The notes under the pieces: model-generated
The model's database searches: none
Seen by the model: only the letters and a program-made list of their open reading frames with translations
Told to the model about the DNA's origin: nothing
Shown here: positions 39,865 through 62,160 of the stretch, one piece after another
How positions within the stretch are numbered: position 1 is the first letter of the stretch
Layout: each line of letters opens with the position of its first letter
Source of the DNA: Candidatus Enterousia sp.
GTDB taxonomy: Bacteria; Pseudomonadota; Alphaproteobacteria; Rs-D84
Reading direction: 5' to 3'
Assembly (NCBI GenBank): GCA_045606425.1
Contig: JAZURV010000002.1
Span: 22,706-86,705 of the forward strand
Length of the DNA stretch: 64,000 nucleotides
Made by a program: the position numbers and the translations under genes

Positions 39865-40557
39865 TTGGATTATCCAAATGATTTTAACATAAAATCATTT
39901 CCTGCGGGCAAAACAATCGCCCTGTCCCGCAGTGTTTCCATATGGATTTCAATAGTGTTCTTTCTGATTATTGCGATGTGCGGTTTTATACTTATGGTCC
40001 GACATTATCGTGTAAATTATCCGTTTTTGATATCTGTTGACCCATTTACAGAAGAATGGTCTGTTGTCACATATCCTGGGAAAGATGAAAACGAAAAACT
40101 GCACCAATATCAAATAGTCCAGGAAAAATTGGTTCGTGATTTTGTGACAAATTGGTTTACGATTTCCACAGACCCAACAATAAATGAAAAGCGTTGGCGC
40201 GATTGCGATGTGGCGGATTGTGATACCCCAGAACAATTTAGCCCGGACAATATAGATTGTGCAATATCGTGCAAATCAAATGAATCTGTATTTTCTGAAT
40301 TCGCAAACAATGTTTTTCCAGATTATCAAAATTATGCCACATCTGGCGGGAAATGGACGGTTGGTCCAATGTTGATTACACCGTTCACGGTCAATCAGAT
40401 ATCTGGCACATGGCAGGTTGTTGTATCTGTTCAACCGTCAATGGCACAATCTTTTGATGCGTTGGCTTTCATAACAATCGAACAAGATAAAAATAAATAT
40501 CCAGCCACACTGGGATACCACATAACAAACTTTAATTCATACAGAATCGAAAAATGA
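39865..40557 (+). CDS. VirB8-like T4SS protein
   Basis: One N-terminal TM, PFLISVD, EKLVRDFVTNW, LGYHITNF C-terminus. Confidence 0.55.
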   Translation: MDYPNDFNIKSFPAGKTIALSRSVSIWISIVFFLIIAMCGFILMVRHYRVNYPFLISVDPFTEEWSVVTYPGKDENEKLHQYQIVQEKLVRDFVTNWFTISTDPTINEKRWRDCDVADCDTPEQFSPDNIDCAISCKSNESVFSEFANNVFPDYQNYATSGGKWTVGPMLITPFTVNQISGTWQVVVSVQPSMAQSFDALAFITIEQDKNKYPATLGYHITNFNSYRIEK

Positions 40558-41240
40558 ACAAGATAGCGTCTTTTTTTACCGGCTGTTTATTGGTGGTAAT
40601 AACATTTGTTATTATCGTGTTGGGCGCGTTATTATTTCGCGCAAATGAACGCGCGTCAATAAAATCCTATATTTTTCAAATGAACAACCTTTCAAACCAA
40701 CGCGTCGGTGAACTGCAAAATATAAATGAAATTTCAGCAATAGATTTAAGAAACAAACTGATAAAAAAATATGTTTCAGAATATTTCAAGGTTATCCCCG
40801 GCGAAAAAGATGTCGAAAACCGTCCTGTATTGCGTATTATGAATACCGAACCAAACACATCAAAACTGACCCCTGCATACACTCAATGGCGCAACGGAGA
40901 AGCAAAAACAATCGCACAAATGTCCAACCAAAATATGTTACGAATTGTTCATGTTTATGACGATGGAATCGCGACATTGAATCGTCCGGCTGATTATGAT
41001 TATAATGACGAAAATGTAAAACGCGTTTATTATGCAGTACGATATTATACTGAAACATGGGACGCGCCAAACCAGATGGCAAAAATGCCAGAGAAAGGTC
41101 AAGGTATCATTTATATCGAAGCAATATTCCAGCCAGGTATTCGTAAAAATGTCAATATACAAAAATATTTACAAAGTGGCGAAAATCCAGTAGGATTATT
41201 TAAATTCACAGTTACCAATATCGGCAACAAGGAAATGTAA
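40554..41240 (+). CDS. Second VirB8-like protein
   Basis: N-terminal TM, LIKKYVSEY, ENPVGLFKFTVT (NPxGf.V motif). Confidence 0.5.
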   Translation: MNKIASFFTGCLLVVITFVIIVLGALLFRANERASIKSYIFQMNNLSNQRVGELQNINEISAIDLRNKLIKKYVSEYFKVIPGEKDVENRPVLRIMNTEPNTSKLTPAYTQWRNGEAKTIAQMSNQNMLRIVHVYDDGIATLNRPADYDYNDENVKRVYYAVRYYTETWDAPNQMAKMPEKGQGIIYIEAIFQPGIRKNVNIQKYLQSGENPVGLFKFTVTNIGNKEM

Positions 41241-41243
41241 AAA

Positions 41244-42020
41244 ATGAAAAAAATTATGATTTTAATATCTTTGTTTGGTTTTATGTTTTCGATGCCCGCT
41301 GTCATGGCTGACGATATGGATTTTGATTCATTTGCCATTGTAAACGACGCAGACGAAGATATGAACATGGAAAGCGTATCATTGAATGAAGGCGCCGGCG
41401 TGTTAAATGTTAAACAATTTGATATCGCCGGAATAATGTTGGGAATGAATTATGATGCGGTAAATGATTTATTTTTTGAAAACGGCGGATTGTATGCGCC
41501 GCGCCAACGGGACAGCGTTATTTACACGATAAATAAAGAATGGAAATATAATTTGGATTATGAATGTCGTCAAAACAATGTCTTTGTTCCAGACCAATTG
41601 GAAAAATGTATAAATTCTTTGGCGCGCAGTCGCGGGTTGCTGTATGTATCAGAAATCCATTTGGAACGCGCTTTTACTGGCGAAACAATCGATGTGTATT
41701 TTACCAGCAACGCCACAGACAATGTTGTGTGGAAAATTGTTTATAATAACGATGTGAATAAAATGGACGGCGACAGTGAAAAATTCGAAAATCAACGCGA
41801 AAAGAAAATTCTGGCGTTTTGGCAGGGCGTTGTTGATAAATACGGAATTCCTAATTCAGGCGAAGACAAATGGATTTCGTCTGAAAATGCCTATGACCCA
41901 ATGATGCAGGCATATTATGGTCAACTGGTTCTGATTGACAAAGGATTGGACGCAACAGATTCCGCAGAAAATATTCAACGGGCACGCGAAAATTTCCAGG
42001 CAAAACCATATGCTTTCTAA
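41244..42020 (+). CDS. Secreted hypothetical protein
   Basis: Signal peptide; FDIAGIMLGM. Confidence 0.6.
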   Translation: MKKIMILISLFGFMFSMPAVMADDMDFDSFAIVNDADEDMNMESVSLNEGAGVLNVKQFDIAGIMLGMNYDAVNDLFFENGGLYAPRQRDSVIYTINKEWKYNLDYECRQNNVFVPDQLEKCINSLARSRGLLYVSEIHLERAFTGETIDVYFTSNATDNVVWKIVYNNDVNKMDGDSEKFENQREKKILAFWQGVVDKYGIPNSGEDKWISSENAYDPMMQAYYGQLVLIDKGLDATDSAENIQRARENFQAKPYAF

Positions 42021-42867: not shown

Positions 42868-44091
42868 TTATATTGACATTTCTTCGCGTGCCATTTGGGC
42901 AATTGGTGCAATATATTTCAATTCCGCGTCACTGTGCAGTGATATTTTATCTATTAAACCACGGCGCGACAAAATTTGTAATCCGCGTTCGCACAACGGT
43001 TTAATAAATTCGTTCAACAAACGCCCGTATGTCGCCCCCAGTATTCGAACCATATCAGAATTGCGCGCCAATATTTCTGTTGCGGTCATTTCTTTGTCTG
43101 ATAACAGCCCCAGTCTGTCCGCCAATAATGTGTGACGAATTCTGTCACGCAAATCGCGCAAGACTATTTGTGAAACATCAAAATCAGAACCGCTTTGCAG
43201 CGGTGTCAAACCTGACGAACCGACAGCCTTTGGTATAATTGCGCCAGGTGTCAAATTTATATTCGACAAATTTATAACACCATCATCATCGGCCTGCCAT
43301 ATGCCGCTGACCGCGATAGTTGCGTTTTTCAACACCAATTCGACAACTTTGTTCGCGGTTTTAATATCTGGCAACGCACGCAATACCGGACCGCGCCCGT
43401 ATAATTCGCCACTGACCATGGACCAACGGAATATAATGTATGGGGTCGTTTCAAATGTTCCGCGTGCAACAATGTTATTTTCAAAATCACCACCAACATC
43501 AACCCATGCAGTAAAGTCTTTACCAACCAGTGCCTGAACCAATCTGATTGGTGTTTGTGGGTCAGATTTTACTGTGTCGCGCATATTATTCGGGAACACA
43601 AAATCTGGATAACGTTCCATTAAATCACATGCTGGTAATGATGTAGTATGGAACACCATACCCGGTAATATCGCAATATCTTTCATTGGAATTGCAGTGA
43701 AAGAAAAAGCGGAATCTGAACCAATCGGATTTTCCGCCATAAACAAACAGGCAGTTCCCAGAACGACCAAATCGATATAGCACTGATGCACAGTTGTGTA
43801 AAAATTAGAATCATTCAAATGCGCACGCAACATCAGTGTTGCCGTTTCTGCATCTGGTGACAAATCACTTTCACGAACCAGATTTATCCACAACGATTCT
43901 GGCGGTGTCAATAATGAATACATAGACGCAGCCAAATTATCAACAGCATCAGACGCAGTCGCATCGAACAAAGTCGCAACATCTGTGTCATCTGTTGGTA
44001 TGGTATAGCGCATGGCGTCCCGCCAACGCGGCAACCAGATTTCCCGTTCATTTAATGCTCGTTTATATAATTGCATAAGGTTTTTTTGCAT
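42868..44091 (-). CDS. Portal / head-tail connector (T7/BPP-1 type), compact
   Basis: FDATA..AVDNLAASM, DLVVLGTA, RW....GELYGRGP...ALPDIKTAN, MTATEI. Confidence 0.85.
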   Translation of the reverse strand: MQKNLMQLYKRALNEREIWLPRWRDAMRYTIPTDDTDVATLFDATASDAVDNLAASMYSLLTPPESLWINLVRESDLSPDAETATLMLRAHLNDSNFYTTVHQCYIDLVVLGTACLFMAENPIGSDSAFSFTAIPMKDIAILPGMVFHTTSLPACDLMERYPDFVFPNNMRDTVKSDPQTPIRLVQALVGKDFTAWVDVGGDFENNIVARGTFETTPYIIFRWSMVSGELYGRGPVLRALPDIKTANKVVELVLKNATIAVSGIWQADDDGVINLSNINLTPGAIIPKAVGSSGLTPLQSGSDFDVSQIVLRDLRDRIRHTLLADRLGLLSDKEMTATEILARNSDMVRILGATYGRLLNEFIKPLCERGLQILSRRGLIDKISLHSDAELKYIAPIAQMAREEMSI

Positions 44092-44106: not shown

Positions 44107-44955
44107 TTATATGTTGAATTCAGTATTTGCACGAATAACAGTTTGGTTCTTTCCGAATGCACGCACAGGGTTCGGCATCATAGATATCGCCCCCGCAACC
44201 GCGTCCAGACCGTCATCGTGTTCCCTGGAACCAATCGGCGTCCACGCTAACATTTCAGACAACAACATCGTTTGTTTAACGCGGTCGTGCATGAAAAGGT
44301 GACCTGTGGACAACAATGGTTCCAAAGCATTCAAAATTCTTGTTTCTTTCTTTACATGATTTGAAATCTGCACAATATTTACCTGCATCTGATTTTTTGA
44401 TGCGATATCGCGCATAATTTCTGGCAACGCGTTGCCAATTCCGTTTGTTTCAATACCTATACGTGTTGTATGATGTTTTCGCATAAAATCCAGAACATCT
44501 GCACACTGGTTTGCCAACGGATGAATATCCGAATCATCAACATGCATATACATAATATCGTGAACAAAAACATTTCTGTTTTTATCGTCGCGATATATCA
44601 GGACACAAACACTGCCGTCATGATTATTGCGTCCTGTCGATGGGTCCCAATACAGTGCAGTTCCTGTGATATTATGTTCACCTATTTTCGCGGTATAAAT
44701 ATCAAAGTCATTTGAATAGAAATGCACTGCCCCTGGGTCCAATTGAACGCGTTCCATGGCGACATATTCCAACATCATTTGTGCAGAAAAATGTCGTGGG
44801 CCAACAATGTCTGCCAATTCGTGTATTTTTTCGATTGGGAACATATCGGGCCACGCCGGATTTCCAGCACTGTCCACGATGGGAATTTTCAATTGTCTGT
44901 ATCCCCGTAAAAAAGGTATTGAATTCTGAAAATTTTCGTTTAATCTTATGGACAT
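44107..44955 (-). CDS. Terminase large subunit, C-terminal nuclease half
   Basis: WPDMF...FSAQMML, YWDPS, IETNGIG, KETRI...LEP, HDDGLDAVA. ATG at 44955 with GGAG RBS inside dnaB. Confidence 0.8.
   Translation of the reverse strand: MSIRLNENFQNSIPFLRGYRQLKIPIVDSAGNPAWPDMFPIEKIHELADIVGPRHFSAQMMLEYVAMERVQLDPGAVHFYSNDFDIYTAKIGEHNITGTALYWDPSTGRNNHDGSVCVLIYRDDKNRNVFVHDIMYMHVDDSDIHPLANQCADVLDFMRKHHTTRIGIETNGIGNALPEIMRDIASKNQMQVNIVQISNHVKKETRILNALEPLLSTGHLFMHDRVKQTMLLSEMLAWTPIGSREHDDGLDAVAGAISMMPNPVRAFGKNQTVIRANTEFNI
44919..44946 (+). promoter_or_regulatory. Putative sigma70 promoter for leaderless dnaB, located inside terL-C
   Basis: TTGAAT-16bp-TAATCT; ATG at 44954 falls at the expected +1. Confidence 0.4.
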
Positions 44956-46501
44956 GGACTTCACTCCGAAAACTTTACCTACTAATTTAGAAGCCGAACA
45001 GGCCGTATTGGCGGCGGTACTGATGAACAACCGCGCATTGGAATCTGTGTCAGATTTCTTGATGCCAGAACACTTTTTCCACCCAGCGCACCAGGAAATA
45101 TATCGCCTGGCGATGCGCCAATTTGCCGTTGGTATTCCGTTTGATATAATCACTGCCAAAACATACCTGGAACAACAGGGAACTTTGGAAAGCGTTGGCG
45201 GTGTTGAATACCTGTCTAAATTGGCATCGGCGGGCTCTACGGTGGTAAATGTTGAACATTACGGACACATAGTTTTTGATAATGCGCGTCGCCGTGATTT
45301 GATTCAATTGGGGCAAAGCATTATCGACGATGCCTATACCGAAGATTTGGACAAAAGTGTGAACACCCAAATCGAATCGGCAGAACAAAAGTTATTTAAT
45401 CTGGCGTCCACAGGTCAAACAGAACACAGCGTTGTATCGTTGGCGGACGCGTTGAAAAGCGCACTGAAAGAAGCCGAAATCGCGTACAAAGCCGACGGCA
45501 AATTGTCTGGTCTGACCACAGGGTTGGACGATTTGGATAAATCTATCAGTGGTCTGCATCATTCTGATTTAATTATTATCGCCGGTCGTCCAGGTATGGG
45601 TAAAACAACACTGGCGATGAATATTGCTTTTAATGCAGCGAACGCGATATTAAATGGTCGTGCGAACACCCAATACAGGGGCGCGGTTGCATTCTTCAGT
45701 TTGGAAATGTCGTTTTCCCAATTGGCGGCGCGCGTGTTATCATCACAATCAAAGATACCTGCATCACACATGCGTGACGGTAATCTTAGCGACGAAGATT
45801 TTACAAAAATGACCCAATACAGCGAAGCCCTGTCAAAGGTTCCTGTGGTCATAGACGATACCGCAAACATGTCGGTTGCAGGAATCAAAACGCGCGCACG
45901 CCGTATTGCGCGTCAGTTTAATGGTCTGTCGCTGATTGTTATCGACTATTTACAGTTGATGACATCACCAGGTGGCAAACACAGCGACAATCGTGTTCAG
46001 GAATTGTCTGAAATCACCCGCGGTCTGAAAATCCTGGCCAAAGAAATGGATGTGCCTGTTATCGCCCTGTCCCAGTTGTCCCGCAGCGTCGAACAACGCG
46101 ACGATAAACGCCCTGTTCTGTCAGATTTGCGTGAATCCGGTTCTATTGAACAAGATGCGGATATCGTTATGTTTACATACCGCGAAGAATATTACCTGGA
46201 AGGTCGTTCCCCAGATAAAAAATTATCCGGAACTGCGTCCGAACAATCCATGCAGAATTGGCAAAAGCGTTTAGACAGCGTCCGCAACAAGGCAGATGTT
46301 ATCATCGCAAAAAACCGTCATGGTAAACCAGAAACAGTACATTTAAGTTTCATCGGCGAATACTATCTGTTTGATAACCTGAACCAGTTTGGACCACAGC
46401 AGAATTCTGACACAGGATTTGAAGTGCAATATGCTGCCCCGGCAGATTCAAATGTACAAACCGTTGCCGATGCAAATGATATTCCTGACGATTTCATTTA
46501 A
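44948..46501 (+). CDS. dnaB: Replicative DNA helicase DnaB
   Basis: EAEQAVL, AGRPGMGKT, FSLEMS, VIDYLQL, LSQLSR, DLRESGSIEQDAD, KNRHG. Confidence 0.95.
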   Translation: MDMDFTPKTLPTNLEAEQAVLAAVLMNNRALESVSDFLMPEHFFHPAHQEIYRLAMRQFAVGIPFDIITAKTYLEQQGTLESVGGVEYLSKLASAGSTVVNVEHYGHIVFDNARRRDLIQLGQSIIDDAYTEDLDKSVNTQIESAEQKLFNLASTGQTEHSVVSLADALKSALKEAEIAYKADGKLSGLTTGLDDLDKSISGLHHSDLIIIAGRPGMGKTTLAMNIAFNAANAILNGRANTQYRGAVAFFSLEMSFSQLAARVLSSQSKIPASHMRDGNLSDEDFTKMTQYSEALSKVPVVIDDTANMSVAGIKTRARRIARQFNGLSLIVIDYLQLMTSPGGKHSDNRVQELSEITRGLKILAKEMDVPVIALSQLSRSVEQRDDKRPVLSDLRESGSIEQDADIVMFTYREEYYLEGRSPDKKLSGTASEQSMQNWQKRLDSVRNKADVIIAKNRHGKPETVHLSFIGEYYLFDNLNQFGPQQNSDTGFEVQYAAPADSNVQTVADANDIPDDFI

Positions 46502-46567
46502 TTTTTATCTTGCCAAGGTCTTAAAAATTGACTAACATTTTGTCAACATATACAAAAAGGGCAAACC

Positions 46568-47575
46568 ATGGCACAAGAAGAAATCATTTTCCCAAATAAC
46601 ATTCGCAACATCCGCGCATCGCGTGGTATGAAGATGACTGAATTGGCGCGTCGTTCCAATTTATCACTGTCCGCAGTATCAAAAATTGAAAAAGGCGTCC
46701 GTCGTCTGAATCAGAAACAATTGCTGAATGTGTGCAATATATTGGGTTGTAAATTGTCCGATATATTTATTCACGAATCTGATTCTGTGGCACAAAATTG
46801 GCAAAATGAAATCAGACGCCGCCTGGTTGATAACGAAGACAGCGGATTGAAAATATTTGGTTCTGGCCTGCGTAAAATTCGCCAACGCAGCGAAAAAACT
46901 ATCGCCCAGGCTGCCAAGGCTGCGAATATGACACTGTCTGTGTATCATAAAATTGAGGTCGGTCAACGCGAAGTCTATGAAAACGAAATCGATGTACTGG
47001 CCCAGGCGTTTGGATACAAAGCGTCCGAATTATTCGATGAAATCGCAAAATTATACAAATCTGGCGAACTGACAAAACAAATCGACAAAGTCAAAGAACG
47101 CGTTAAATCTGTTTTGGAACCGGTCAACCCAGTGTCCGGATTGGATATTCACGGCGGACTTTATGGCGCACAGTTATACGATAACGCACGCAAAAAATTG
47201 GTTCCTGTTTTCGGTAAACCATCTGGCAAATCCATTCAGTTGAAAAAGTCTGATGAAACGATGATTGTTGCACCAACTGAATTAGAAGGCCACAATGGAA
47301 TCTATGCCGTCGTACCAAATTCGAAACGCCTGGGTGGATTTATCCCAGAATCTGCATATGTTTTTGTAGATGCAAATTCGACCCCGTCTGTCGGCGATTT
47401 GGCGGTAAGTATGGACGCTGATTTTGCGAAATTATCATCTGACGATGTTGCAAATGCCCAAATCGTCGTGGTCAAGAAAGATTCCCACGGCAAAATTTTT
47501 GGTCATGTATCTGGCCCAGAAGAAAAAGTTTACGGCAAAACTTTGCACAAAGTTGTTATGATTGTAATGCAATAA
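46568..47575 (+). CDS. Double-HTH XRE family regulator
   Basis: Two HTH_XRE domains (IRNIRASRGMKMTELARR...; LRKIRQRSEKTIAQAAK...) plus a beta-rich C-terminal domain. Confidence 0.8.
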   Translation: MAQEEIIFPNNIRNIRASRGMKMTELARRSNLSLSAVSKIEKGVRRLNQKQLLNVCNILGCKLSDIFIHESDSVAQNWQNEIRRRLVDNEDSGLKIFGSGLRKIRQRSEKTIAQAAKAANMTLSVYHKIEVGQREVYENEIDVLAQAFGYKASELFDEIAKLYKSGELTKQIDKVKERVKSVLEPVNPVSGLDIHGGLYGAQLYDNARKKLVPVFGKPSGKSIQLKKSDETMIVAPTELEGHNGIYAVVPNSKRLGGFIPESAYVFVDANSTPSVGDLAVSMDADFAKLSSDDVANAQIVVVKKDSHGKIFGHVSGPEEKVYGKTLHKVVMIVMQ

Positions 47576-47599
47576 CCTGTATAACCCAAGGAGAGAGAT

Positions 47600-48241
47600 A
47601 TGCAACAACAGGCACACACAATCGCCCAACGTTTGTTAAATCTTTATCGCCAGGCCCATGTCATAGATGGCGGTTGGGCTGCGGTGAACCAGGTTTTTAT
47701 TTCTGAATCAAATGACAATCAGGTTATTTCTGAATTGGAAACAATGCCAACTGGGAAAAAACTGATTGCACATATAAACAACCTGCGCGCAGGAAAAACA
47801 CCGATGGATTCTATCGACAAAGATTTATTGCCGTATGGTGGGCTGATGACTGGGCAACAAACAACTGTTTCTTTGTCTGATGATGAAATCAAACAATTAA
47901 AACAAATTCTGAATACATTCCAACCAAATCCAGAAAGTTTGGAAATCGTAAAGAATTTACCGTTTGTTCAAAAATTCGGTAATGATTGGGTTCAAGATGT
48001 AAAATCAGCAATCGCATTTGATAATGATTTATCCAACAAATGGCAAATTGTCGCGCAAACCGACCATGCCTATCGCACATGGGACAGCGCAAAACAATTA
48101 CTGTCTGAAACACTGACAGAACGCAATCGCGCCCAAATTCAGGCTGACATGCCAGAATTCGAAACATATCTGCCCATGTTCGGCGATGCCGGGAATGAAA
48201 TGTTGGCTAAATTGCGTACATTTATGTCGTCGTTGTCGTAA
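47600..48241 (+). CDS. Hypothetical protein
   Basis: 213-aa ORF with GGAG RBS. Confidence 0.65.
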   Translation: MQQQAHTIAQRLLNLYRQAHVIDGGWAAVNQVFISESNDNQVISELETMPTGKKLIAHINNLRAGKTPMDSIDKDLLPYGGLMTGQQTTVSLSDDEIKQLKQILNTFQPNPESLEIVKNLPFVQKFGNDWVQDVKSAIAFDNDLSNKWQIVAQTDHAYRTWDSAKQLLSETLTERNRAQIQADMPEFETYLPMFGDAGNEMLAKLRTFMSSLS

Positions 48242-48243
48242 AT

Positions 48244-48861
48244 TCATTCTGTTTTATAGATTGTATCATGCGTGTGCGGTGTACCGATATAAATCATCGT
48301 TCCGTTTGGCGATAAAATAAAATCCAGTTCACGCAATCTTTCACGCAGATTTTCCCTTTTCTGTTGCGTATTGCATGTATTTGGCACTTCTACATCGTCA
48401 CAGATAATCAAATCAGAACGCATTCCTGTTATGTTGCCTGCGATTCCTTGGCAAATAACAGATGGTTCGCGAATTCCGATTGGACGTTTTATAGTTATCT
48501 TGTGCGTGCCCCATTCTTTTTTTACATCAGGAACAATTCCATCGCACCACGGATGATTTTCAATAATGTTTTTTATATGCGCAACCATACGCGATGCCAA
48601 TCCAGATTCTGCGGACAATATCAAAATCCTGGTTTCTGGTTTGTGATATAAAACACACGCCGCAAACACACCGACAACTGTTGATTTTCCGGAATGCCTG
48701 AAAGCGTTTAATAATCCACGATGTGGTTTATTGTTAAATACATCGACCAAGAAACCTATTATTTTTTTATGATGTTCTGGCGTTTGCAATCCCAAAACTT
48801 TGTTCCACGCGTCCAGAAAATCAAATGCTTCCGTAATCGTCATTGTTATCGCCACTGGCAT
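48244..48861 (-). CDS. Terminase large subunit, N-terminal ATPase half
   Basis: AFRHSGKST (Walker A), ITGMRSDLIICDDVE (Walker B), YIGTPH coupling motif, then a stop codon. Confidence 0.85.
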   Translation of the reverse strand: MPVAITMTITEAFDFLDAWNKVLGLQTPEHHKKIIGFLVDVFNNKPHRGLLNAFRHSGKSTVVGVFAACVLYHKPETRILILSAESGLASRMVAHIKNIIENHPWCDGIVPDVKKEWGTHKITIKRPIGIREPSVICQGIAGNITGMRSDLIICDDVEVPNTCNTQQKRENLRERLRELDFILSPNGTMIYIGTPHTHDTIYKTE

Positions 48862-49369
48862 GTTCCGTCACAGACCCATAATCGTTTATCAGTTTTGGCA
48901 AAGCATCTTCCAATACCGATACCAAATTATAATACAGCCCCAAAACCGCACCGCCAGACATTTTATCTTCGATTGTCGCCATCACATAGTCTAATTTTTT
49001 CATTACTGTGTCATGAATATTTGCCCATTGTGATAAATCGATATTTATAGTTTGAATATCTTGTAATGCAGCAACGATAAAATCGAAATCAGAATTCAAA
49101 TCTTCTGGGTCTATTTTTTCCGTTGGCTGATAATCTATCACACGCGACAAATCAACCTGGCGAAAGATATCTATCTGTGTACCTGTTTCGGGTGCAACGG
49201 GGAACACAACCACGCCACCGCTGAAATCATCATTTGGATTTACATCATATTGTGTGTTATCCAAAACAGAATCGTTGATTGCGACCTTTATATCTGCATC
49301 TTGAAAGAATGGGAACACAAATGAAAATTCGGTATTTTCACCGTCCCCAACATAAGAGATTTTATACAT
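48821..49369 (-). CDS. Tail fibre protein, T7 gp17 N-terminal-like domain
   Basis: SYVGDGENTEFSFVFPFF..DIKV...IFR...DLNSDFD. Confidence 0.7.
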   Translation of the reverse strand: MYKISYVGDGENTEFSFVFPFFQDADIKVAINDSVLDNTQYDVNPNDDFSGGVVVFPVAPETGTQIDIFRQVDLSRVIDYQPTEKIDPEDLNSDFDFIVAALQDIQTINIDLSQWANIHDTVMKKLDYVMATIEDKMSGGAVLGLYYNLVSVLEDALPKLINDYGSVTEHASGDNNDDYGSI

Positions 49370-49378
49370 TTTGTCCCC

Positions 49379-49726
49379 CTATCCTGCGATTTTGTCGATA
49401 TTGCTTAACCAGTTTTTAATGATGTTAGGTTTTTTTACTTTCAGTTTTTTTATTTTATCGATATTTTCCTGACGCTTGGTTTCGTATGGTTCTGCGGTTT
49501 CATCGCGCAAACGTTTCAGCACCGCTTTTTCGGACAAACCGTTTCCGCCATTTCCACTGGCACCGTATTTAGCGCGTTGATTTGCCAATGCTTTTTTTAT
49601 TAAATTTGTTTTTGTCGCTTCGTCTGACGCCATTTGTGCCAGTATTTTCTGACGTTGATTTTCTGCTTCCTTTTTTGAATCTTTATAATCTAAAACTTTT
49701 GTCACATCTGATACCAGTTGTCCCAT
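49379..49726 (-). CDS. Putative internal virion protein
   Basis: Helical, with QRAKYGASG motif; located after tail tube B. Confidence 0.45.
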   Translation of the reverse strand: MGQLVSDVTKVLDYKDSKKEAENQRQKILAQMASDEATKTNLIKKALANQRAKYGASGNGGNGLSEKAVLKRLRDETAEPYETKRQENIDKIKKLKVKKPNIIKNWLSNIDKIAG

Positions 49727-49744
49727 TTGTTTCCTCCTGTTTTT

Positions 49745-51457
49745 TTATACTAAATACCAACCATCAACTGTCACAGACAATATGGTTGCGTTTAATTGTT
49801 CGTTGCTGGACAATGTCCACAACGGTTTCATTGTGTCGATTTGACCGCCCAACAAATTCAATGATAAATCACCGCTGTATCCAGGATTGTCTGCATCGTA
49901 AACACAATTTGGAATTTCTATGCGTTGATTATTTACAAACACAGTCTTTGTATCCAAAACGCGCAGCGATATTTTACGCGCCCGAATTTTCTTTGGGCTG
50001 TGATTATTCACTATCATTGGGAACGCAGATATTTTATAAGAAAAATTATAATTCGTGGCATCAGTCAAAGACGCTTCATCAAATTTTTCCAAATAAAAAT
50101 TATTATCGCGTTCAACAACAACATATGTTGCATTATTAAACACGCTTACATACTTGAATTTACCGTTTGTTGTATATCTTCCCCACGCATTTATATCTGT
50201 GTTCGGATGTTTATTCAACACAGCCATATACCCGTCATTCATCACAATGAAAAGGCGATGTGTCGCCTGATTGAATGCGATGCTGATTGGTTCTTGCATC
50301 AAATGTTTAGACAACGAACATAAATCGTTGGCATTGTAATGCTGACTTAAATCATCTAAATCCAGTTCGCGCACATCTTTGCCGGACTGCGAAATAAATA
50401 CAGTGGAACCTTCTATTTGTTGTGGTGGCAACCAGCGATTTGTTATAGAACCAACCGATGTATGCTGTTTAATATCTATATTTGCCGGCGTCAATGGGGC
50501 ATTCGAAATCGCCCATTCGCCCACAGATGTCAATATTTGCAAATTATCACTGCTGACTATTGTTGAAATCTGGTGATGTTGCGACGATAACAGGGCAGTA
50601 AAAATCGCATCATCATCTAAACCGTTGCCTGCATCAAAGTTATTGTAATCACCGACTTTCGACATCCACAAATTATTTGGTGCCGATTTTGTGCCACCGA
50701 AAACCAATCTGTTTTGATGGAACGAAACGGCGCGCGGCCAACCGCGTTTGTCACTGAATGCGGCAACATACCAATCATAGATAGCAGTACCAGGGAAAGA
50801 AAAATCTCCGTTTGTAAAAACAGTCGCGACACGCGCATTTTGCACAGATTGAACAATCCATTGTTTATTGTTGACCAACAACCTTTGCCAAACCCAATCA
50901 TCGGTCCATATATCTTTGTTGGTGGTAAATGTTGCATGGTTATTGTCGATTGTACTGCTGGAAATCGTTATAGCAACTCCGTCCATATCGTCGAATCGCA
51001 TAAACGGAATGTTTATTGACAAATCCGAATTGACATGGAAATAAAACTGTTTGATACTGAAACCAGATGCGTCTTTGGTAAATACCATTGGACTGAATTC
51101 TGGGTGCGCGAAAAAGATTGAATTAAATCTTTGTGCGTATTGTATTTGTTTTAAATCTATATTTTCCCACGGCGTGGTCACACTTTCAATTTGCACATCG
51201 TTTTCATACACATCTATTTTTTGGTTGTAAATAACCAATAAATATTTTTCCGATTCGCTTATCTGAAAAGGCACCAAAATCGCATTGTCTGGAATTTGCG
51301 CGATACTTTGCAGTCCTGCTCTGCGCTTTAATGCACCAGATTGCAAAACATCCATATTTTCCAGATGTGCCAACCCATTATTATTATTTATGGCATAAAA
51401 TTCTGGTGAAATTTCACCAAATGAAAATATATTTTGTGTTTTAAGAAAATTTCCCAT
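49745..51457 (-). CDS. Tail tubular protein B (gp12-like nozzle)
   Basis: FSFGEISP...NMDVLQSGALKRRAG, GWPRAVSFHQNRLVFGG, WMSKVGDYNNF. Confidence 0.75.
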   Translation of the reverse strand: MGNFLKTQNIFSFGEISPEFYAINNNNGLAHLENMDVLQSGALKRRAGLQSIAQIPDNAILVPFQISESEKYLLVIYNQKIDVYENDVQIESVTTPWENIDLKQIQYAQRFNSIFFAHPEFSPMVFTKDASGFSIKQFYFHVNSDLSINIPFMRFDDMDGVAITISSSTIDNNHATFTTNKDIWTDDWVWQRLLVNNKQWIVQSVQNARVATVFTNGDFSFPGTAIYDWYVAAFSDKRGWPRAVSFHQNRLVFGGTKSAPNNLWMSKVGDYNNFDAGNGLDDDAIFTALLSSQHHQISTIVSSDNLQILTSVGEWAISNAPLTPANIDIKQHTSVGSITNRWLPPQQIEGSTVFISQSGKDVRELDLDDLSQHYNANDLCSLSKHLMQEPISIAFNQATHRLFIVMNDGYMAVLNKHPNTDINAWGRYTTNGKFKYVSVFNNATYVVVERDNNFYLEKFDEASLTDATNYNFSYKISAFPMIVNNHSPKKIRARKISLRVLDTKTVFVNNQRIEIPNCVYDADNPGYSGDLSLNLLGGQIDTMKPLWTLSSNEQLNATILSVTVDGWYLV

Positions 51458-51475
51458 ATCTAAACTCCTTTATTG

Positions 51476-51994
51476 TTAAAACCTGGAATCTATCAAAGAA
51501 AAATTTCCGATATTTGGTTGATTTGAAGTTGTACTGTCTATAAATTTTGCAGATTGAAATTCTGATTCGTATAATGCCGTCATCATTCGAAATACAGACG
51601 CATCACCAATCAAGGGTATACAAAATTCTACTGCTAATTTGGTTGCCAATAATGTGGCAAAATAGCCAGGAAACGCATCTGGTTCTGTTTTTACAACCGC
51701 CAATATAGTTATTGTGTTTTCTGTGGATTTGATTTTATTCCCGATAATTTGCCCGTTGCATTTCAATATTCTTAAAACTTCGGTTGGTATTAAAAAATCA
51801 TCATCAGATGTTTTGTTTAAAACCAAAGTTTTGGTCGCAAAACGCCACGGGAAAGTTGATAATAATGTATCCAAAGTTGGTTCAAACAATGTTCGTGCCA
51901 ATTGCGCGCTGGCAGAATCTTCGCGCCACGATTGAATTGGTTTTTCGCCTAACTTTAACAATGCCATTGAACATATATCTATTTTTGTAAACAT
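51476..51994 (-). CDS. Tail tubular protein A (gp11-like adaptor)
   Basis: IDICSMALLKLGEKPIQS...PWRFA. Confidence 0.75.
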   Translation of the reverse strand: MFTKIDICSMALLKLGEKPIQSWREDSASAQLARTLFEPTLDTLLSTFPWRFATKTLVLNKTSDDDFLIPTEVLRILKCNGQIIGNKIKSTENTITILAVVKTEPDAFPGYFATLLATKLAVEFCIPLIGDASVFRMMTALYESEFQSAKFIDSTTSNQPNIGNFSLIDSRF

Positions 51995-52063
51995 ATTCGC
52001 ACCTTGTATTAAAAAATTGGGGGATAAAACATTCCCCCAATTTACAGTTCAAAGAAAAAATTA

Positions 52064-52294
52064 TTAAGATAAAGCACCGACTGTCACAACGCCTTCGGCA
52101 ACAGTGACAACCTTTATCGACGAACCGTTTGATCCGTTGATTAAAATGATGTCGCCTGTATTCATCAGATTTTTCAGGCTGGAAAAATATCCAGATGCTG
52201 TTATTGTTGCCAATGTCGCGTTTTCTTTATAGTGCCACAGTGTAAAGCCGTTTGCGTATGCAATTACAGATAAATTTTTATTTTGAAAAGCCAT
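52064..52294 (-). CDS. Small virion protein (capsid decoration?)
   Basis: LSVIAYANGFTLWHY...YF...GDIILIN; follows the capsid gene. Confidence 0.55.
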   Translation of the reverse strand: MAFQNKNLSVIAYANGFTLWHYKENATLATITASGYFSSLKNLMNTGDIILINGSNGSSIKVVTVAEGVVTVGALS

Positions 52295-52317
52295 TTTGTC
52301 TTCCTTTTTGTTATAAA

Positions 52318-53142
52318 TTATTCTGCATCGTCATCGCATTTGATACGAACGATACCTTCGCCGTCAATCAAAACTGCGCCCTGGGACATGCTGTTGCTGA
52401 TAAAGTGGGCTGCGCGTTCGCCGTGCCATGTGATATCTGTTTTGACTTCCTGACCACATGCGTGACCAATACTGGATGCATGATAGATAAAGCAATCACG
52501 GTCATCACTGCTAAGTGGCAAAGAATTACACAAAATCCAATTCACACCCAACCATTTACGCGATTCGCAACCATCAACCAATGGTGTTGCAGAACCAACA
52601 TAATCGGCAGAAACAAATTCATCCATTCCCAACAATTCGTTCCATTGGTGTACACCAACAACCGCAAATCTGCGACCATCATCTGGCACATCGTTCGCGT
52701 TCAATTTTTCCAACGCAGCCATAATCAAATCTTTGGTCAAACCAGTAGAATAATCGCCAACATATTGTGTCGCGCTGGTCATCGCGTTGATAATCAGTTC
52801 ATCTGTTTTGCGACCCAACGCATATGCACCGGCAGACGCAACCACACGACGTTCATCAACATTTGTTTTTAATTCATCCAACGAATCAACCCAATCACCG
52901 GCATAGTAATCTTGCAATACACATTCAACCGGGGTGTGATTCAAATTCATCACAGGAACAATCCCATGACGCGATTTTGTGCTGGCGATACCTTTGCCAA
53001 CTTTCTGGAAAGTAGTAGATGCCCCAACAACCCCAGATTTACTGCGAATTGTGGAACGTAATTTTGTGCCCATTTGCTGATAAGCCAAATGAACATCTGC
53101 TTCAAATTGTTTTACAAACACTTGATCTACAGACATAGACAT
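52318..53142 (-). CDS. Major capsid protein (podovirus type)
   Basis: FVKQFEADVHLAYQQMGTKLR, AYALGRKTDELII, DVPDDGRRF. Confidence 0.85.
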   Translation of the reverse strand: MSMSVDQVFVKQFEADVHLAYQQMGTKLRSTIRSKSGVVGASTTFQKVGKGIASTKSRHGIVPVMNLNHTPVECVLQDYYAGDWVDSLDELKTNVDERRVVASAGAYALGRKTDELIINAMTSATQYVGDYSTGLTKDLIMAALEKLNANDVPDDGRRFAVVGVHQWNELLGMDEFVSADYVGSATPLVDGCESRKWLGVNWILCNSLPLSSDDRDCFIYHASSIGHACGQEVKTDITWHGERAAHFISNSMSQGAVLIDGEGIVRIKCDDDAE

Positions 53143-53376
53143 AATAAATCCTTTTTGTTTAAATTAAATGACGCTTTCGCGCTATTTGAAAAAAATTTTG
53201 TTAGATGGTTATGCGAAATATTCGCGCCATAAAAACAAAAACACACAAAAAAGGGTCCAATAAATGGATTATCCAATAAAAAATTCAGTCAGACTTTTAT
53301 TCATCTGGCTGAAAAATTTATCATAAAAAAATCCCCAAAACAAGCGCCTTGGGGATTTTTAAAAACTTTGCAAAAA

Positions 53377-53634
53377 TTATTTTTTCTTAACTACTTTTTT
53401 AGCAGCTGGTTTTTTTGCAGGTGCTTTTTTTGCAACTGGTTTTTTAGCAGCTGGTTTTTTTGCAACTACTTTTTTTGCAACTGGTTTTTTAACTGCAACT
53501 TTTTTTGCAGGTGCTTTTTTTGCAGCTGGTTTTGCAGCTGGTTTTTTTGCTGCTACTTTTTTTGCAGGTGCTTTTTTTGCAGCTGGTTTAGCAGCTGGTT
53601 TTGCGCATGCACATTTTTTCTTTAAACCGAACAT
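53377..53634 (-). CDS. Histone H1-like Lys/Ala/Pro-rich basic protein
   Basis: AKKPA/AKKVA/AKKAP pentapeptide repeats; AGGAG RBS; hairpin at 53325-53360. Confidence 0.75.
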   Translation of the reverse strand: MFGLKKKCACAKPAAKPAAKKAPAKKVAAKKPAAKPAAKKAPAKKVAVKKPVAKKVVAKKPAAKKPVAKKAPAKKPAAKKVVKKK

Positions 53635-53731
53635 GTTTCTCTCCTTATTAAAGTTTTGGACAGAACAAAATTATTTTGTTCTTGTTTTATATTTTATATG
53701 AATTGAAATAAATAGTAAAGAACAAAATGAT

Positions 53732-54388
53732 TTATGAATACAATTTTTTAAAACCATTTTCAATTTTACGAACATATTCAGGATCATGATCACGCCAATA
53801 TTTTGGATCACGCATCATATTACGCAACATATCATCAGATAAATTTTCTGTGACATTTTTATCGGTTAAAACATTCGGTTCCAGTGATTGCATCATCTTG
53901 TACATGCCTTGAATTCCCTGGGGTGTGGCACACAGTTCTTCGAATGCAGATTGTGGTAAATACTTTTCACCAAACGCATTTATTTCGCGTAATGCTTCGT
54001 TCATTTTTTCTGTGGAACCAAAAAAATTTTTTAATTCATTTATTGCGTTTGATTGGTTTTGTAATTCAAATAAATTTTTTAATGTTGGTTGTAAAAATTC
54101 TTCTGCGATGGAATAAATTTGTTCAACCTGTTTTGATGTTAAACCAATTTCATGAAATTTATTGCGGACCGATTCGTCATCAAACAAATCATTTGTTGGA
54201 TATTCAGATGCACTGTCAGGTACACCTATGGCGTGATTAAATTTTTGTTTTGTATTTTCGTCACTTTCATCATTTGGCACTGATATCATATTGCCCATCT
54301 TTTTTTCCAGTTCACAATATGACTTTACCAATGCAGATGTATTTAATTCGCCGTTTTCATCAAGAAATTTTTCTGGAACTTTTTCCAT
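53732..54388 (-). CDS. Capsid scaffolding protein
   Basis: VPEKF...LVKSYCELEKKMG...MMRDPKYW...VRKI; upstream of the capsid gene. Confidence 0.7.
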   Translation of the reverse strand: MEKVPEKFLDENGELNTSALVKSYCELEKKMGNMISVPNDESDENTKQKFNHAIGVPDSASEYPTNDLFDDESVRNKFHEIGLTSKQVEQIYSIAEEFLQPTLKNLFELQNQSNAINELKNFFGSTEKMNEALREINAFGEKYLPQSAFEELCATPQGIQGMYKMMQSLEPNVLTDKNVTENLSDDMLRNMMRDPKYWRDHDPEYVRKIENGFKKLYS

Positions 54389-55005: not shown

Positions 55006-55156
55006 TTTGTGACCTGTTTTTTTGTTATAAAAAAAAGCCCACACATAAAATGTGTGGGTAAAAATTCAGAATAAAAAAACCGCACTTACTGCGGACATAA
55101 TTTCTATTCTTGATGTTCCATATAATATCACAAATTGACATAAAAGTCAAGCACAT

Positions 55157-61097: not shown

Positions 61098-61129
61098 AAA
61101 AAACGCCGCCGAATGGCGGTGTTTTTTTT
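61098..61129. terminator. Bidirectional intrinsic terminator ending the RT gene
   Basis: AAAAAACGCCGCC-GAAT-GGCGGTGTTTTTTT. Confidence 0.8.
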
Positions 61130-62147
61130 ACAAATTTGTTTTCAAGAAAACAAACATCTTTGGCGTGGAATCTTTTGCGATACGAAAAAAATGATTCCGA
61201 TAATTAAATGTGCACGCCCATTTCAGCCACCCGTGTGCGGCGGCGATTTGACTGACTGCATGGTCACTGAAATCACGATGTAATATTATATTCATCAGTC
61301 TTTTTTTGATTTTCATGGCAGATTGTTTTCGTAATTTCAGATATTTTTTGAAATGTCGGTACCCAATAAAAGGAACACCACATTTTGTCTGGCGCAGAAT
61401 GGATTTAGACAACACCAGGTTCAGATTTTCTTTCACAAAGATTTCTATTTGCGTGGCTGCGTTTTTTAATTCGTCTTTGTTGTTGCCATACAGACAGAAA
61501 TCATCGCAATATCTTATATAATCGCGCCAATGCAAATGTTGTTTTACAAACATATCTAATTCGTTCAAAAACACATTGCCCAACCATTGTGATGTTAAAT
61601 TTCCAATTGGCAAATTTTTACCACCACCGACCGAAAAAATTATTTCGTGCAATATACGCAACATACGACGGTCGTGAATTTTTTTTGCGACGATGCGCAT
61701 TAAAATATCATGACTGATTGACGGGTAAAATTTACGGATATCGCATTGCAGGACATATTTGTTTCGTCGCACGAAATGCATAGTCCGACTGGACGCGGCA
61801 TGCAATCCGCGACCGGGAATACATGCGTATGAATCATAAATAAACAAACGTTGCCATATTGGCCCCAGGATATTTATAATTGCATGATGCAGAATATGGT
61901 CTGGGTACAATGGCAAATTATATATAACGCGCAGTTTTGGTTCACGAATGGTAAATGTTTTATATTGCGATGTTCGAAAACGTCCAGACATAACATCGTT
62001 GCGCAGTTTTTGTAATAATGCGTCGCGATTTTTCAAGAATTTTTGCACTGCCCGGCGGGATTTTTTACTGCGCACGGCTTTTTTTGCGGCCAAATCGAAA
62101 TTTTCCACAGATATAAATTCATCCCAAAGATTTTTATATGTTTTCAT
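61128..62147 (-). CDS. DGR reverse transcriptase
   Basis: CDIRKFYPSI, LPIGNLTSQ (DGR-type GxxxSQ), YIRYCDDF. About 340 aa with no endonuclease domain; start reassigned to MKTYKNLWD. Confidence 0.92.
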   Translation of the reverse strand: MKTYKNLWDEFISVENFDLAAKKAVRSKKSRRAVQKFLKNRDALLQKLRNDVMSGRFRTSQYKTFTIREPKLRVIYNLPLYPDHILHHAIINILGPIWQRLFIYDSYACIPGRGLHAASSRTMHFVRRNKYVLQCDIRKFYPSISHDILMRIVAKKIHDRRMLRILHEIIFSVGGGKNLPIGNLTSQWLGNVFLNELDMFVKQHLHWRDYIRYCDDFCLYGNNKDELKNAATQIEIFVKENLNLVLSKSILRQTKCGVPFIGYRHFKKYLKLRKQSAMKIKKRLMNIILHRDFSDHAVSQIAAAHGWLKWACTFNYRNHFFRIAKDSTPKMFVFLKTNL

Positions 62148-62160
62148 CAGTTTACAGTTT

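Follow-up and report, generated by a model that had tools for sequence, protein, structure and literature searches.

To our knowledge the large terminases described so far are single chains, and DNA translocation is believed to be powered by the coupling, inside that chain, of ATPase, lid, linker and nuclease. Those of the T7 type, such as T7 gp19 (PDB 4bij), PhiV-1 TerL (8dgc chain E) and the members of family NF033889 and of Pfam Terminase_6N with Terminase_6C or Terminase-T7_RNaseH-like, are single polypeptides of about 500-590 residues. The locus analyzed here, part of a window of 64,000 nucleotides from a Candidatus Enterousia MAG (Alphaproteobacteria, order Rs-D84), has the same motifs, fold and order of parts in two genes, the division falling after motif III and ahead of the ATPase strand that follows it. 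ATPase and nuclease are not joined on a single polypeptide but reside on two ORFs of the same strand, separated by 3288 nt from the stop of TerL-N to the start of TerL-C. Three genes lie between them on the opposite strand: dnaB, an XRE regulator and a 213-aa ORF (Table 1). As the initial annotation had it, TerL-N ends with ..YIGTPHTHDTIYKTE, its TGA stop (48246-48244) being separated by 2 nt from the TAA at 48239-48241 that closes the convergent 213-aa ORF, and the nuclease half restarts some 3.3 kb further on, with MSIRL at 44955 on the minus strand.

Table 1. Features of the two-chain terminase locus, numbered from the first letter of the window.
Feature	Position	Strand	Remarks
Portal, T7-type (Head-tail_con)	42868-44091	-	E 2.3e-80; directly after terL-C
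TerL-C chain	44107-44955	-	282 aa; begins MSIRL; residues 1-65 remaining ATPase domain (next strand and lid/linker); residues ~66-267 RNase H-like nuclease with D104, E169 and D247/D248/D251 invariant
dnaB promoter (predicted)	44919-44946	+	TTGAAT 44919-44924, 16 nt, TAATCT 44941-44946; terL-C codons 3-12
CATG common to the divergent terL-C (-) and dnaB (+) starts	44953-44956		2-nt overlap; 32/32 Enterousia-type loci
dnaB	44954-46501	+	Conserved start ATG 44954, kept in 32/32 loci
terL-C ribosome-binding site GGAG	44964-44967	-	GGAG or GGGG in 32/32 loci
Palindrome TTGAC-N9-GTCAA	46528-46546		dnaB-xre spacer, over xre promoter; candidate operator
XRE-family regulator	46568-47575	+	335 aa; two HTH domains
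213-aa ORF	47600-48241	+	Always paired with xre
TerL-N chain	48244-48861	-	205 aa; ATPase core as far as motif III; Walker A G58 K59 S60; Walker B D155 D156 E158; GTPH 193-196
Upstream structural genes overall	48821-54388	-	
Fibre N-domain	48821-49369	-	
Tail tubular B	49745-51457	-	
Tail tubular A	51476-51994	-	
76-aa ORF and 115-aa ORF	within 48821-54388	-	
Capsid	52318-53142	-	
Histone-like 85-aa ORF	53377-53634	-	
Scaffold	53732-54388	-	
Structural operon start (presumed)	55038-55150	-	Promoter TTGACT-17-TATTAT over TTGAC-N6-GTCAA palindrome

Jointly, the two chains span one T7-type large terminase. TerL-N carries the motifs of an ASCE ATPase (Walker A, Walker B with the catalytic glutamate, motif III) and TerL-C an RNase H-like nuclease with its acidic catalytic set. 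On the phrog_38 profile (760 positions) TerL-N matches 275-459 and TerL-C 468-716, so that the halves abut; on NCBIfam termin_lrg_T7 (500 positions) TerL-N spans 4-190 and the best stretch of TerL-C is 332-500. With NF033889 TerL-N scores 226.9 bits (cut-off 150) and TerL-C alone 104.6 bits, the cut-off of 150 being set for the whole protein. TerL-N aligns to residues 34-211 of 8dgc_E (E 4e-23), and to residues 29-211 in the comparison with T7-type TerLs; identity to phage TerLs is about 35% for TerL-N and about 24% for TerL-C. The nuclease model of TerL-C resembles P22 4dkw_A (Z 16.8, rmsd 2.8, 171 residues aligned) and T4 3cpe (Z 14.6, rmsd 3.1, 173 aligned); residues 18-261 match residues 172-415 of D6E 5oeb_A (Z 15.7, rmsd 2.8, 168 aligned), and TerL-C matches 8dgc_E 227-532 (Z 17.5, rmsd 9.9, 223 aligned). 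The split itself, first placed at the junction of ATPase and nuclease, is real, but the break lies about 65 residues upstream of that junction, inside the ATPase fold, just after motif III and before the next strand. This genome contains one gene for each chain.

Misassembly does not account for this arrangement. In 23 of 24 genomes of the same genus the halves share contig and strand at a spacing of 3.27-3.40 kb; in a genome consisting of a single contig (G075) the distance is 3359 nt, and the arrangement recurs in 32 independently assembled loci. Conservation of the split extends to the whole order: the TerL-N profile matches 188 of the 201 genomes sampled, and TerL-N is a separate ORF of about 200 residues (198-251 aa among the 150 frames listed). 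Single-protein queries against 41 relatives retrieved N in 38 and C in 36, both chains being present in 36 of the 38 relatives with an N match; of the other two, G034 has a weak N match (E 3e-5) that lies inside a 603-aa frame. The break point is common to all 45 loci compared, the N chain ending 0-3 residues past ..TIYK.. in 38 of them and carrying a tail 6-36 residues longer in seven, with all three types of stop codon in use. The halves are adjacent in L067-L071, with 165-334 nt to the C frame, and have the portal between them in family f3 (L072-76); in other families they are adjacent or separated by the portal and other genes. In G031 they are on different contigs, and in L062 dnaB lies between them in sense orientation. 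The N chain is absent from 13 of the 201 genomes, some of them 97-98% complete; the system is dispensable in some lineages. In G029 (family f6, 99% complete) TerL-N is followed directly by the portal and neither protein nor profile search found TerL-C; the two chains are thus not always found together.

Among other Alphaproteobacteria 42 of 298 genomes gave a match, all best matches but one lying in frames of 399-937 aa, and 50 of 56 IMG/VR loci (L104-L159) have both parts fused in a single frame, with a median gap of 9 residues. As relatives outside the order possess one fused TerL of about 500 aa, the split is a derived state that arose near the base of the order. The dnaB block, to which the split or its fixation had been ascribed, is not its cause, and that it locks the halves in place is not supported either, since the split is order-wide, the halves are adjacent, separated by the portal, reordered or unlinked elsewhere, dnaB has the sense orientation in L062, and the outgroup TerL is fused. 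The split is older than the present place of dnaB between the halves.

The clusters with a fused TerL in other Alphaproteobacteria and IMG/VR have a matching set and order of genes (portal, scaffold, capsid, 76-aa ORF, tail tubular A and B, fibre, TerL, p149), with 50-64% identity for the capsid and 43-51% for TerL-N. They differ in that TerL is one ORF and that their distribution is patchy (the 42 of 298 genomes). Two such genomes of one family (G296 and G461) have no flanks in common, and their clusters look like ordinary prophages or remnants. The host flanks of the Enterousia-type loci (lipB; yraN, bamA) are the same throughout, and p149 adjoins the scaffold gene in families f1, f3, f4 and f5 but not in the outgroups. 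Judged by the capsid, the nearest phages in culture are Pelagibacter phage EXVC031P Hodr (42.7%) and HTVC010P (32%).

Both chains are under purifying selection. The catalytic motifs, initially seen to be retained in either half, do not vary in any of 22 sequences from across the order (G58 K59 S60, D155 D156 E158 and G193 T194 P195 in TerL-N; D104, E169, D247, D248 and D251 in TerL-C), and none of the 36 N and 31 C sequences of the Enterousia type contains an internal stop codon. Neither half shows relaxed selection: median pairwise dN/dS, obtained with dS near saturation (median ~1.2) in most pairs, is 0.076 for terL-N, 0.170 for terL-C, 0.063 for capsid, 0.064 for portal, 0.111 for dnaB and 0.165 for lipB; values for xre and the 213-aa ORF are 0.11 and 0.18. 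In the small sets of pairs with dS < 0.8 the values are 0.039 for terL-N (5 pairs), 0.097 for terL-C (6), 0.067 for capsid (148), 0.034 for portal (7), 0.054 for dnaB (6) and 0.146 for lipB (10).

Complex prediction for the two halves gave a score of 0.88, compared with 0.00 for the best of three controls. Solved complexes attain the mark applied to this score in 58 of 80 cases and mismatched pairs in 2 of 110, counts that hold only roughly for this complex because it was predicted with our own alignments. Contact agreement between runs was at least 96% and partner pLDDT at least 76. The model places a strand of the C chain beside the Walker A strand, with predicted contacts of C 14-26 with N 48-57 (the strand before Walker A) and of C 58-64 with N 194-205; P25, W35, F39, G52, F56, Q59 and M60, within the predicted interface (C 14-64), are invariant order-wide. 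Residues 1-70 of TerL-C folded alone were of low confidence. The predicted docking may reflect likeness to solved single-chain TerL structures. If the model holds, the two chains would rebuild one ATPase domain by strand complementation, and TerL would be an obligate two-chain enzyme, N providing Walker A, Walker B and motif III and C the next strand, lid, linker and nuclease. Intact halves, invariant catalytic residues, purifying selection and predicted docking support the functional two-chain TerL proposed at the outset.

The dnaB gene is the only replicative helicase gene found, with a single DnaB_C match in the genome; its product scores 618 bits on NF006606 (cut-off 540) and stays under the phage_DnaB cut-off, in line with its earlier reading as an essential gene. 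The head-to-head overlap of terL-C and dnaB exists, but amounts to 2 nt within CATG and not to 8 nt, as most relatives lack the first ATG (44948) and the second (44954) is conserved. The GGAG preceding the terL-C start by 8 nt (44967-44964) does lie inside the first dnaB codons. The sigma70-like dnaB promoter predicted within terL-C gains support from conservation of the block across 32 loci and from nearly frozen synonymous sites, with an entropy of 0.09-0.12 in terL-C codons 1-18 versus a gene mean of 0.628. Promoter-like matches between 42.0 and 55.5 kb number 48 versus 45.4 +/- 7.4 expected, that is there is no excess over chance. The position of the predicted promoter implies that dnaB mRNA would be leaderless or nearly so. 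Within dnaB itself synonymous constraint is restricted to codons 1-12. The two genes are interlocked at the CATG, with the predicted dnaB promoter in terL-C codons 3-12 and the terL-C ribosome-binding site in the first dnaB codons.

The XRE gene also adjoins the cluster in family f3 (L074, L079), and together with the 213-aa ORF, for which searches gave no family above threshold, it probably regulates the particle cluster, as a candidate regulator. TTGACA is present in the dnaB-xre spacer of 32 of 34 loci, and 28 of the 44 exact palindromes in all Enterousia-type loci fall in this spacer. The presumed promoter of the structural operon is followed by two hairpin and T-run terminators and then by p149, an architecture recognisable in most of the 25 loci listed, with the exact palindrome in 13.

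We consider it likely that one explanation covers these observations jointly: a two-chain TerL, split once at about the base of the order, within a vertically inherited cluster of podoviral derivation. T7-type TerL, portal and tail tube together with an HTVC010P/pelagiphage-like capsid point to a podovirus-derived cluster, which is inherited vertically through the reduced-genome order Rs-D84. A single event would have split the fused TerL. A small promoter-hairpin-terminator unit occupies the break point in four families. Once there were two genes, rearrangements could move the halves apart, and in the Enterousia lineage the host's only dnaB, the XRE regulator and its partner ORF now lie between them. 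Chromosomal fixation of the structural genes (188 of 201 genomes, common flanks) and purifying selection on head and packaging genes (dN/dS 0.03-0.20) are features of a gene transfer agent (GTA). The window yielded neither a small terminase nor internal ejection proteins nor a lysis enzyme, and beside the cluster it showed no phage module for replication, integration or lysogeny.

Breakage of terL usually marks a defective prophage, and together with the lack of replication and integration genes beside the cluster and the 13 sampled genomes without N it could suggest that the halves are pseudogene remnants left by a rearrangement. This is already contradicted by the data on selection and conservation, namely stop-free frames, dN/dS of 0.04-0.17, catalytic residues invariant across the order, an identical break point in 45 of 45 loci and N kept in 188 of 201 genomes, and we regard it as highly improbable. 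We give next to no credence to an intron or intein whose splicing would restore a single TerL, even though RNA-level repair of intron-split terL is documented for Jug phages (PMC12880540) and a structured RNA element occurs in the spacers of the adjacent form. That element is equipped with a consensus promoter and a terminator of its own. Neither the window nor L067-L071 gave a match to an Rfam intron family at the gathering score, the domain search returned no intein or Hint domain, and the breaks in the window leave no non-coding room, the N stop lying 2 nt from the next stop and the C start overlapping dnaB. Halves that are unlinked or reordered (f3, G031) and the use of all three stop codons at the N end likewise argue against splicing. 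That the chains have ceased to cooperate and serve, for instance, as ATPase alone and nuclease alone would suit G029, which keeps N with no detectable C, and the faster evolution of C (dN/dS 0.17 versus 0.08). It appears improbable, as the ATPase domain in N is missing its final core strand and its lid, the predicted interface includes residues invariant order-wide, and 36 of 38 relatives with an N match have both chains.

How the split genes are expressed is a further point, on which we hold it possible but unlikely that the structural operon is read through antisense to the 213-aa ORF, xre and dnaB as far as terL-C and portal, so that particle production would silence regulator and helicase. 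Opposite-strand genes are indeed nested between co-oriented genes, conserved in this form through the genus; a T-run of at least five within 150 nt past terL-N is absent in 32 of 36 loci, and no cluster-strand sigma70-like promoter is conserved inside dnaB (a hit at any one position is common to no more than 6 of 33 sequences), where synonymous constraint ends with codon 12. The strong promoter followed by two terminators at the operon start suggests antitermination control, and processive antitermination would also overcome Rho. On the other hand, the genome has a gene for Rho, which typically acts on RNA such as 3.3 kb of untranslated antisense transcript; the search identified no gene for an antiterminator; L062 has dnaB between the halves in sense orientation; and in four other families a consensus promoter directly follows TerL-N, so the halves need not share one transcript. 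A wider version, in which the whole minus-strand cluster (~55150 to 42360) is one antitermination-controlled late transcript of a podovirus-type GTA, antisense through its own repressor xre and dnaB, is in our view rather doubtful. As such a transcript must cross both genes, TerL-C would be made only after overrunning and silencing them, and two-chain TerL and CATG would form a commitment switch between replication and particles.

Under the preferred reading, a two-chain TerL of single origin, a natural terminase severed within the ASCE core would offer a ready means of finding out which covalent connections the motor requires, and one that has been retained throughout the history of a bacterial order and tolerates unlinked genes. 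The cluster points to a domesticated particle system of podovirus type in gut bacteria with genomes of ~0.9 Mb; we know of no GTA of the podovirus/T7-type lineage. The shared CATG is a compact case of dual coding that constrains both terL-C and dnaB, with the predicted promoter of an essential helicase written into the first terL-C codons. In the literature on terL we found intron-split genes and one unexplained two-CDS case and no conserved two-gene TerL; the one genome paper covered on Enterousia and Rs-D84 speaks of neither phage nor terminase nor GTA.

In excludons and noncontiguous operons of Listeria and Staphylococcus a block on the opposite strand lies between co-oriented genes of one unit. 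The likeness of the present locus to them is one of gene layout, known from sequence, whereas excludons are defined by a long antisense mRNA. The cluster is probably GTA-like. RcGTA-like agents in reduced genomes of Rickettsiales and Holosporaceae have head genes under purifying selection, and the terminase can sit apart from the main cluster (PMC9254644). Head genes kept in very small alphaproteobacterial genomes and a terminase off the main cluster are thus common to both, but the RcGTA-like lineage is HK97/siphovirus-like with a single-chain TerL and the system described here is of podovirus/T7 type with two chains. A terL encoded in pieces has also been described for Jug phages, where the pieces of the intron- or intein-split genes are rejoined by RNA splicing (PMC12880540), and for phage phiPDS1, whose two-CDS TerL led its authors to raise a distinct codon table or an assembly issue (PMC10773633). 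The terminase of Rs-D84 differs from both: it holds no intron, its pieces may be located apart from each other, and the split is conserved throughout the order.

The large terminase of this cluster is a conserved two-chain variant of the T7 type in a domesticated podovirus-like gene cluster, with a notable interlock, read from conservation, between terL-C and the start codon and promoter of the essential dnaB. On the phrog_38 profile the N-terminal chain (TerL-N) covers positions 275-459 and the C-terminal chain (TerL-C) positions 468-716 of 760, that is, the pieces abut. Inspection of both breaks agrees with the junction described in the initial annotation, where one half ends 2 bp from the stop of a convergent gene and the other restarts 3.3 kb later. 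The layout also withstands the check for misassembly: of 24 genomes of the genus, 23 carry both halves on a single contig and strand with 3.27-3.40 kb between them, and near-closed assemblies are laid out identically, with 3359 nt between the halves in the single-contig genome G075. In G017 the halves are on two contigs, yet dnaB and terL-C keep their head-to-head arrangement.

Positions and strands of the features discussed (window positions unless a locus or contig is named)
Feature	Position	Strand	Remark
230-, 228- and 258-aa ORFs	39865-42020	+	adjacent
Bbp19-like ORF, then 86-aa membrane/coiled-coil ORF		-	beyond portal
T7-type portal	42868-44091	-	
TerL-C	44107-44955	-	minus-strand cluster resumes here
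dnaB	44948/44954-46501	+	
Palindrome	46528-46546		xre promoter
xre	46568-47575	+	double-HTH XRE regulator
213-aa ORF	47600-48241	+	
TerL-N	48244-48861	-	
Fibre N-terminal domain	48821-49369	-	
115-aa ORF		-	after tail tubular B in cluster listing
Tail tubular B	49745-51457	-	
Tail tubular A	51476-51994	-	
76-aa ORF		-	after capsid in cluster listing
Capsid	52318-53142	-	podovirus-type cluster
85-aa histone-like ORF	53377-53634	-	between scaffold and capsid genes
Scaffold	53732-54388	-	podovirus-type cluster
Presumed start of structural operon	55038-55150	-	
Palindrome	55135-55150		structural-operon promoter
Reverse transcriptase	61128-62168	-	
Reverse transcriptase with GIY-YIG ORF	61128-62499	-	
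terL-N, dnaB, terL-C	L062:10001-13227		all on one strand
Family f6 locus L077	G029:C64:27000-44000		
RNA unit	L067:8228-8487	-	
RNA unit	L068:7670-7929	-	
RNA unit	L069:7867-8126	+	
RNA unit	L070:8147-8406	-	
RNA unit	L071:8160-8419	+	
RNA unit	L072:15489-15748	-	
RNA unit	L073:6486-6745	+	
RNA unit	L074:6181-6440	+	
RNA unit	L075:11134-11393	-	
RNA unit	L076:13511-13770	-	

The podovirus-type structural cluster occupies the minus strand of a 933-kb host genome (15 contigs, 95% complete), whose close relatives are animal-gut MAGs named Candidatus Enterousia or Alphaproteobacteria. A genome paper on Enterousia assigns the genus to order Rs-D84; the words phage, terminase and GTA each occur zero times in it. 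The 85-aa ORF consists of Lys/Ala/Pro repeats, is preceded by a strong ribosome-binding site and followed by a hairpin and T-run, and is similar to DNA-binding proteins of the histone H1 type (NF038053, E 1.6e-7, under the cut-off); it could serve to condense DNA in the particle. The neighbouring ORFs of 230, 228 and 258 aa matched no Pfam family; they keep their place beside the cluster across Enterousia-type loci, and their dN/dS is higher (0.15-0.30). A reverse transcriptase (RVT_1, 346 aa) adjoins a GIY-YIG nuclease ORF (112 aa); it is not an obvious diversity-generating retroelement (DGR), as no direct repeat of at least 40 nt of the template/variable type was found in 55.8-64 kb.

The initial annotation had taken the antisense dnaB block to be what split the terminase. 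Among relatives the split is conserved: the N-chain profile matches 188 of the 201 genomes sampled from the order, in frames of 198-251 aa in all 150 among the matches listed, and the chain stops within 0-3 residues of TIYK at 38 loci out of 45, running on for 6-36 residues at the other seven. What lies between the halves varies, from a spacer of only 165-334 nt in families f2, f4 and f5 (L067-L071), through the portal and several kb in f3 (L072-L076), to an antisense dnaB plus about 3 kb in L064 and L066; in G031 the halves are on separate contigs. At L062 the helicase gene is nested in sense orientation between the terminase genes. Relatives outside the order have the identical gene order and one fused TerL; both parts share one frame in 50 of 56 IMG/VR loci (median gap 9 residues), and in other Alphaproteobacteria, where the profile matches 42 of 298 genomes, all best matches but one fall in frames of 399-937 aa. 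Because the split is order-wide, the intervening genes differ and the outgroups are fused, these comparisons indicate that the split is derived, single and older than the dnaB block, which would have moved in between two already separate terL genes rather than caused their separation. Two observations on distribution count against the main reading: TerL-C was not found by protein or profile search of G029 (family f6), which keeps TerL-N, and TerL-N is missing from 13 of the 201 genomes of the order, some of them nearly complete. At the f6 locus the portal lies directly 3' of TerL-N, with tubB and scaffold downstream.

A small transcription unit is found directly 3' of the TerL-N stop in f2-f5, where it marks the break point. 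A consensus TTGACA/TATAAT promoter leads into a structured RNA of up to about 150 nt, closed by a hairpin whose large loop is CU-rich (CCCTCCTTATTTTCTCTCTCCTC) and by a T-run; a five-sequence fold has ten stem pairs, eight of them with compensatory changes. The unit may produce an sRNA or act as a leader of the antitermination type. At gathering score Rfam reported only tRNAs in the window and in L067-L071, and no family for the unit in L067-L071; a search of this genome gave no copy of the CU-rich motif.

To judge from their conservation, both TerL chains, encoded in one copy each, are working genes, as had been proposed. Internal stops are absent from all 36 N and all 31 C sequences of Enterousia type, and pairwise dN/dS is low. 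Across 22 sequences drawn from the whole breadth of the order, TerL-N has invariant Walker A, Walker B and motif III, and TerL-C has invariant acidic nuclease residues and seven further invariant residues within its first 60.

Pairwise dN/dS (NG86); values are rough because dS is high (median about 1.2 over all pairs), and the sets with dS <0.8 are small
Gene	Median, all pairs	dS <0.8 (pairs)
terLN	0.076	0.039 (5)
terLC	0.170	0.097 (6)
capsid	0.063	0.067 (148)
portal	0.064	0.034 (7)
dnaB	0.111	0.054 (6)
lipB (host flank)	0.165	0.146 (10)

The break had been placed at the junction of ATPase and nuclease domains, which the predicted structures contradict. TerL-C has no sequence match in the PDB and was matched by fold only, to P22 4dkw_A (Z 16.8, rmsd 2.8, 171 aligned) and T4 3cpe (Z 14.6, rmsd 3.1, 173 aligned); the nuclease domain comprises residues ~66-267. 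On D6E TerL (Z 15.7, rmsd 2.8, 168 aligned) the model from residue 18 onward corresponds to chain residue 172, inside the ATPase domain, and TerL-N ends at the equivalent of residue ~211 of T7-type TerL. By the known ASCE strand order, TerL-N ends past the motif III strand, and the core strand that follows, together with the lid, would come from TerL-C, so the predicted cut lies within the ATPase fold. Residues 1-70 of TerL-C have low confidence when folded without TerL-N. Together the halves are predicted to dock, with a score of 0.88 against 0.00 for the best of three controls, contact agreement between runs of at least 96% and partner pLDDT of at least 76; the contacts join C 14-26 to N 48-57, the strand running up to Walker A, and C 58-64 to N 194-205. 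Of 80 solved complexes 58 pass the score mark, as do 2 of 110 mismatched pairs; these counts are rough because own alignments were used. Since single-chain TerL structures have already been solved, the pass may stem from likeness to them, and the prediction supports assembly rather than demonstrating it.

The dnaB gene is the sole DnaB_C match in the genome and of the cellular replicative type (NF006606, 618 bits, cut-off 540; under the phage_DnaB cut-off). The reported head-to-head overlap with terL-C is real, with a corrected dnaB start: the conserved one is the ATG at 44954, that at 44948 being absent from most relatives, and therefore the two start codons overlap in a common CATG in 32/32 loci. 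The terL-C ribosome-binding site (GGAG/GGGG) lies within the first dnaB codons in all 32 loci, as described. Normalised synonymous entropy falls to 0.09-0.12 in terL-C codons 1-18 against 0.628 gene-wide; the drop in dnaB codons 1-12 (0.38 against 0.661) is roughly what the 5' ends of genes usually show (portal gene 0.40). The frozen terL-C stretch carries conserved TTGAAT at -35 to -30 and TAATCT/TACCAT at -13 to -8 from the dnaB ATG, from which we infer the previously suggested sigma70-type dnaB promoter, giving a leaderless or near-leaderless mRNA. Since a generic promoter scan was not enriched (48 against 45.4 expected), promoter calls rest on conservation.

Transcription of terL-C may come from read-through of the structural operon, as first proposed: no T-run of at least five follows terL-N within 150 nt in 32 of 36 loci, no cluster-strand promoter is conserved inside dnaB, and the operon start, where two terminators come after a strong promoter, suggests antitermination. 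However, Rho is encoded in the genome, dnaB is in sense orientation in L062, and four other families have a consensus promoter immediately 3' of TerL-N. In 32 of 34 loci a TTGACA stands on the cluster strand between dnaB and xre. It was rejected as terL-C promoter, its putative -10 not being conserved; more probably it forms one half of a palindromic operator belonging to the xre promoter. At the operon start, the promoter TTGACT-17-TATTAT, which has a TG, precedes two terminators, each a hairpin plus T-run, within the next ~30 nt and ahead of p149. Most of the 25 Enterousia-type loci listed show this layout recognisably; it suggests control of the operon start by attenuation or antitermination, or else a tiny RNA.

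Exact TTGAC-N4-12-GTCAA palindromes in Enterousia-type loci fall at two sites in 41 of 44 cases, 28 at the xre promoter and 13 at the structural-operon promoter. The two in the window do not exceed chance (0.95 +/- 0.99; 27 of 100 shuffles reach two), and only placement across loci is suggestive. We infer that the XRE protein may regulate itself and the particle operon, and on that reading only dnaB would be a true outsider in the block. Together, xre and the 213-aa ORF, which had no usable protein-atlas match and was unnamed by Pfam, PHROGs and NCBIfam, also adjoin the cluster in f3 (L074, L079).

The initial observation thus stands with three corrections; of its interpretation the two-chain TerL is retained, and dnaB as cause and the domain-junction break are given up. 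Prevalence in the order (188/201 against 42/298 elsewhere in the class), identical host flanks across Enterousia-type loci, p149 adjoining scaffold in f1, f3, f4 and f5 and not in outgroups, and purifying selection on every structural gene point towards domestication. The terminase keeps its catalytic residues, which suggests continued DNA packaging and makes a GTA-like role the best guess; the absence of any recognised small terminase, ejection protein or lysin from the window in Pfam, PHROGs and NCBIfam profile searches cuts against the main reading. In ten class-level families (f29, f62, f92, f93, f97, f107, f112, f118, f132, f149) both listed genomes are positive for a fused-TerL element, which hints at lineage-level persistence. 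For the fused form outside the order, vertical inheritance was rejected on the f93 genomes G296 and G461, which have no common flanks; G461 retains p149 and TerL only.

A precedent for keeping such genes is provided by RcGTA-type clusters in reduced endosymbionts, as described in an earlier study (PMC9254644). By capsid the nearest cultured phages are pelagiphages, Hodr (42.7%), which is annotated with hypothetical proteins only, and HTVC010P (32%), and the TerLs nearest to both chains are T7-like.
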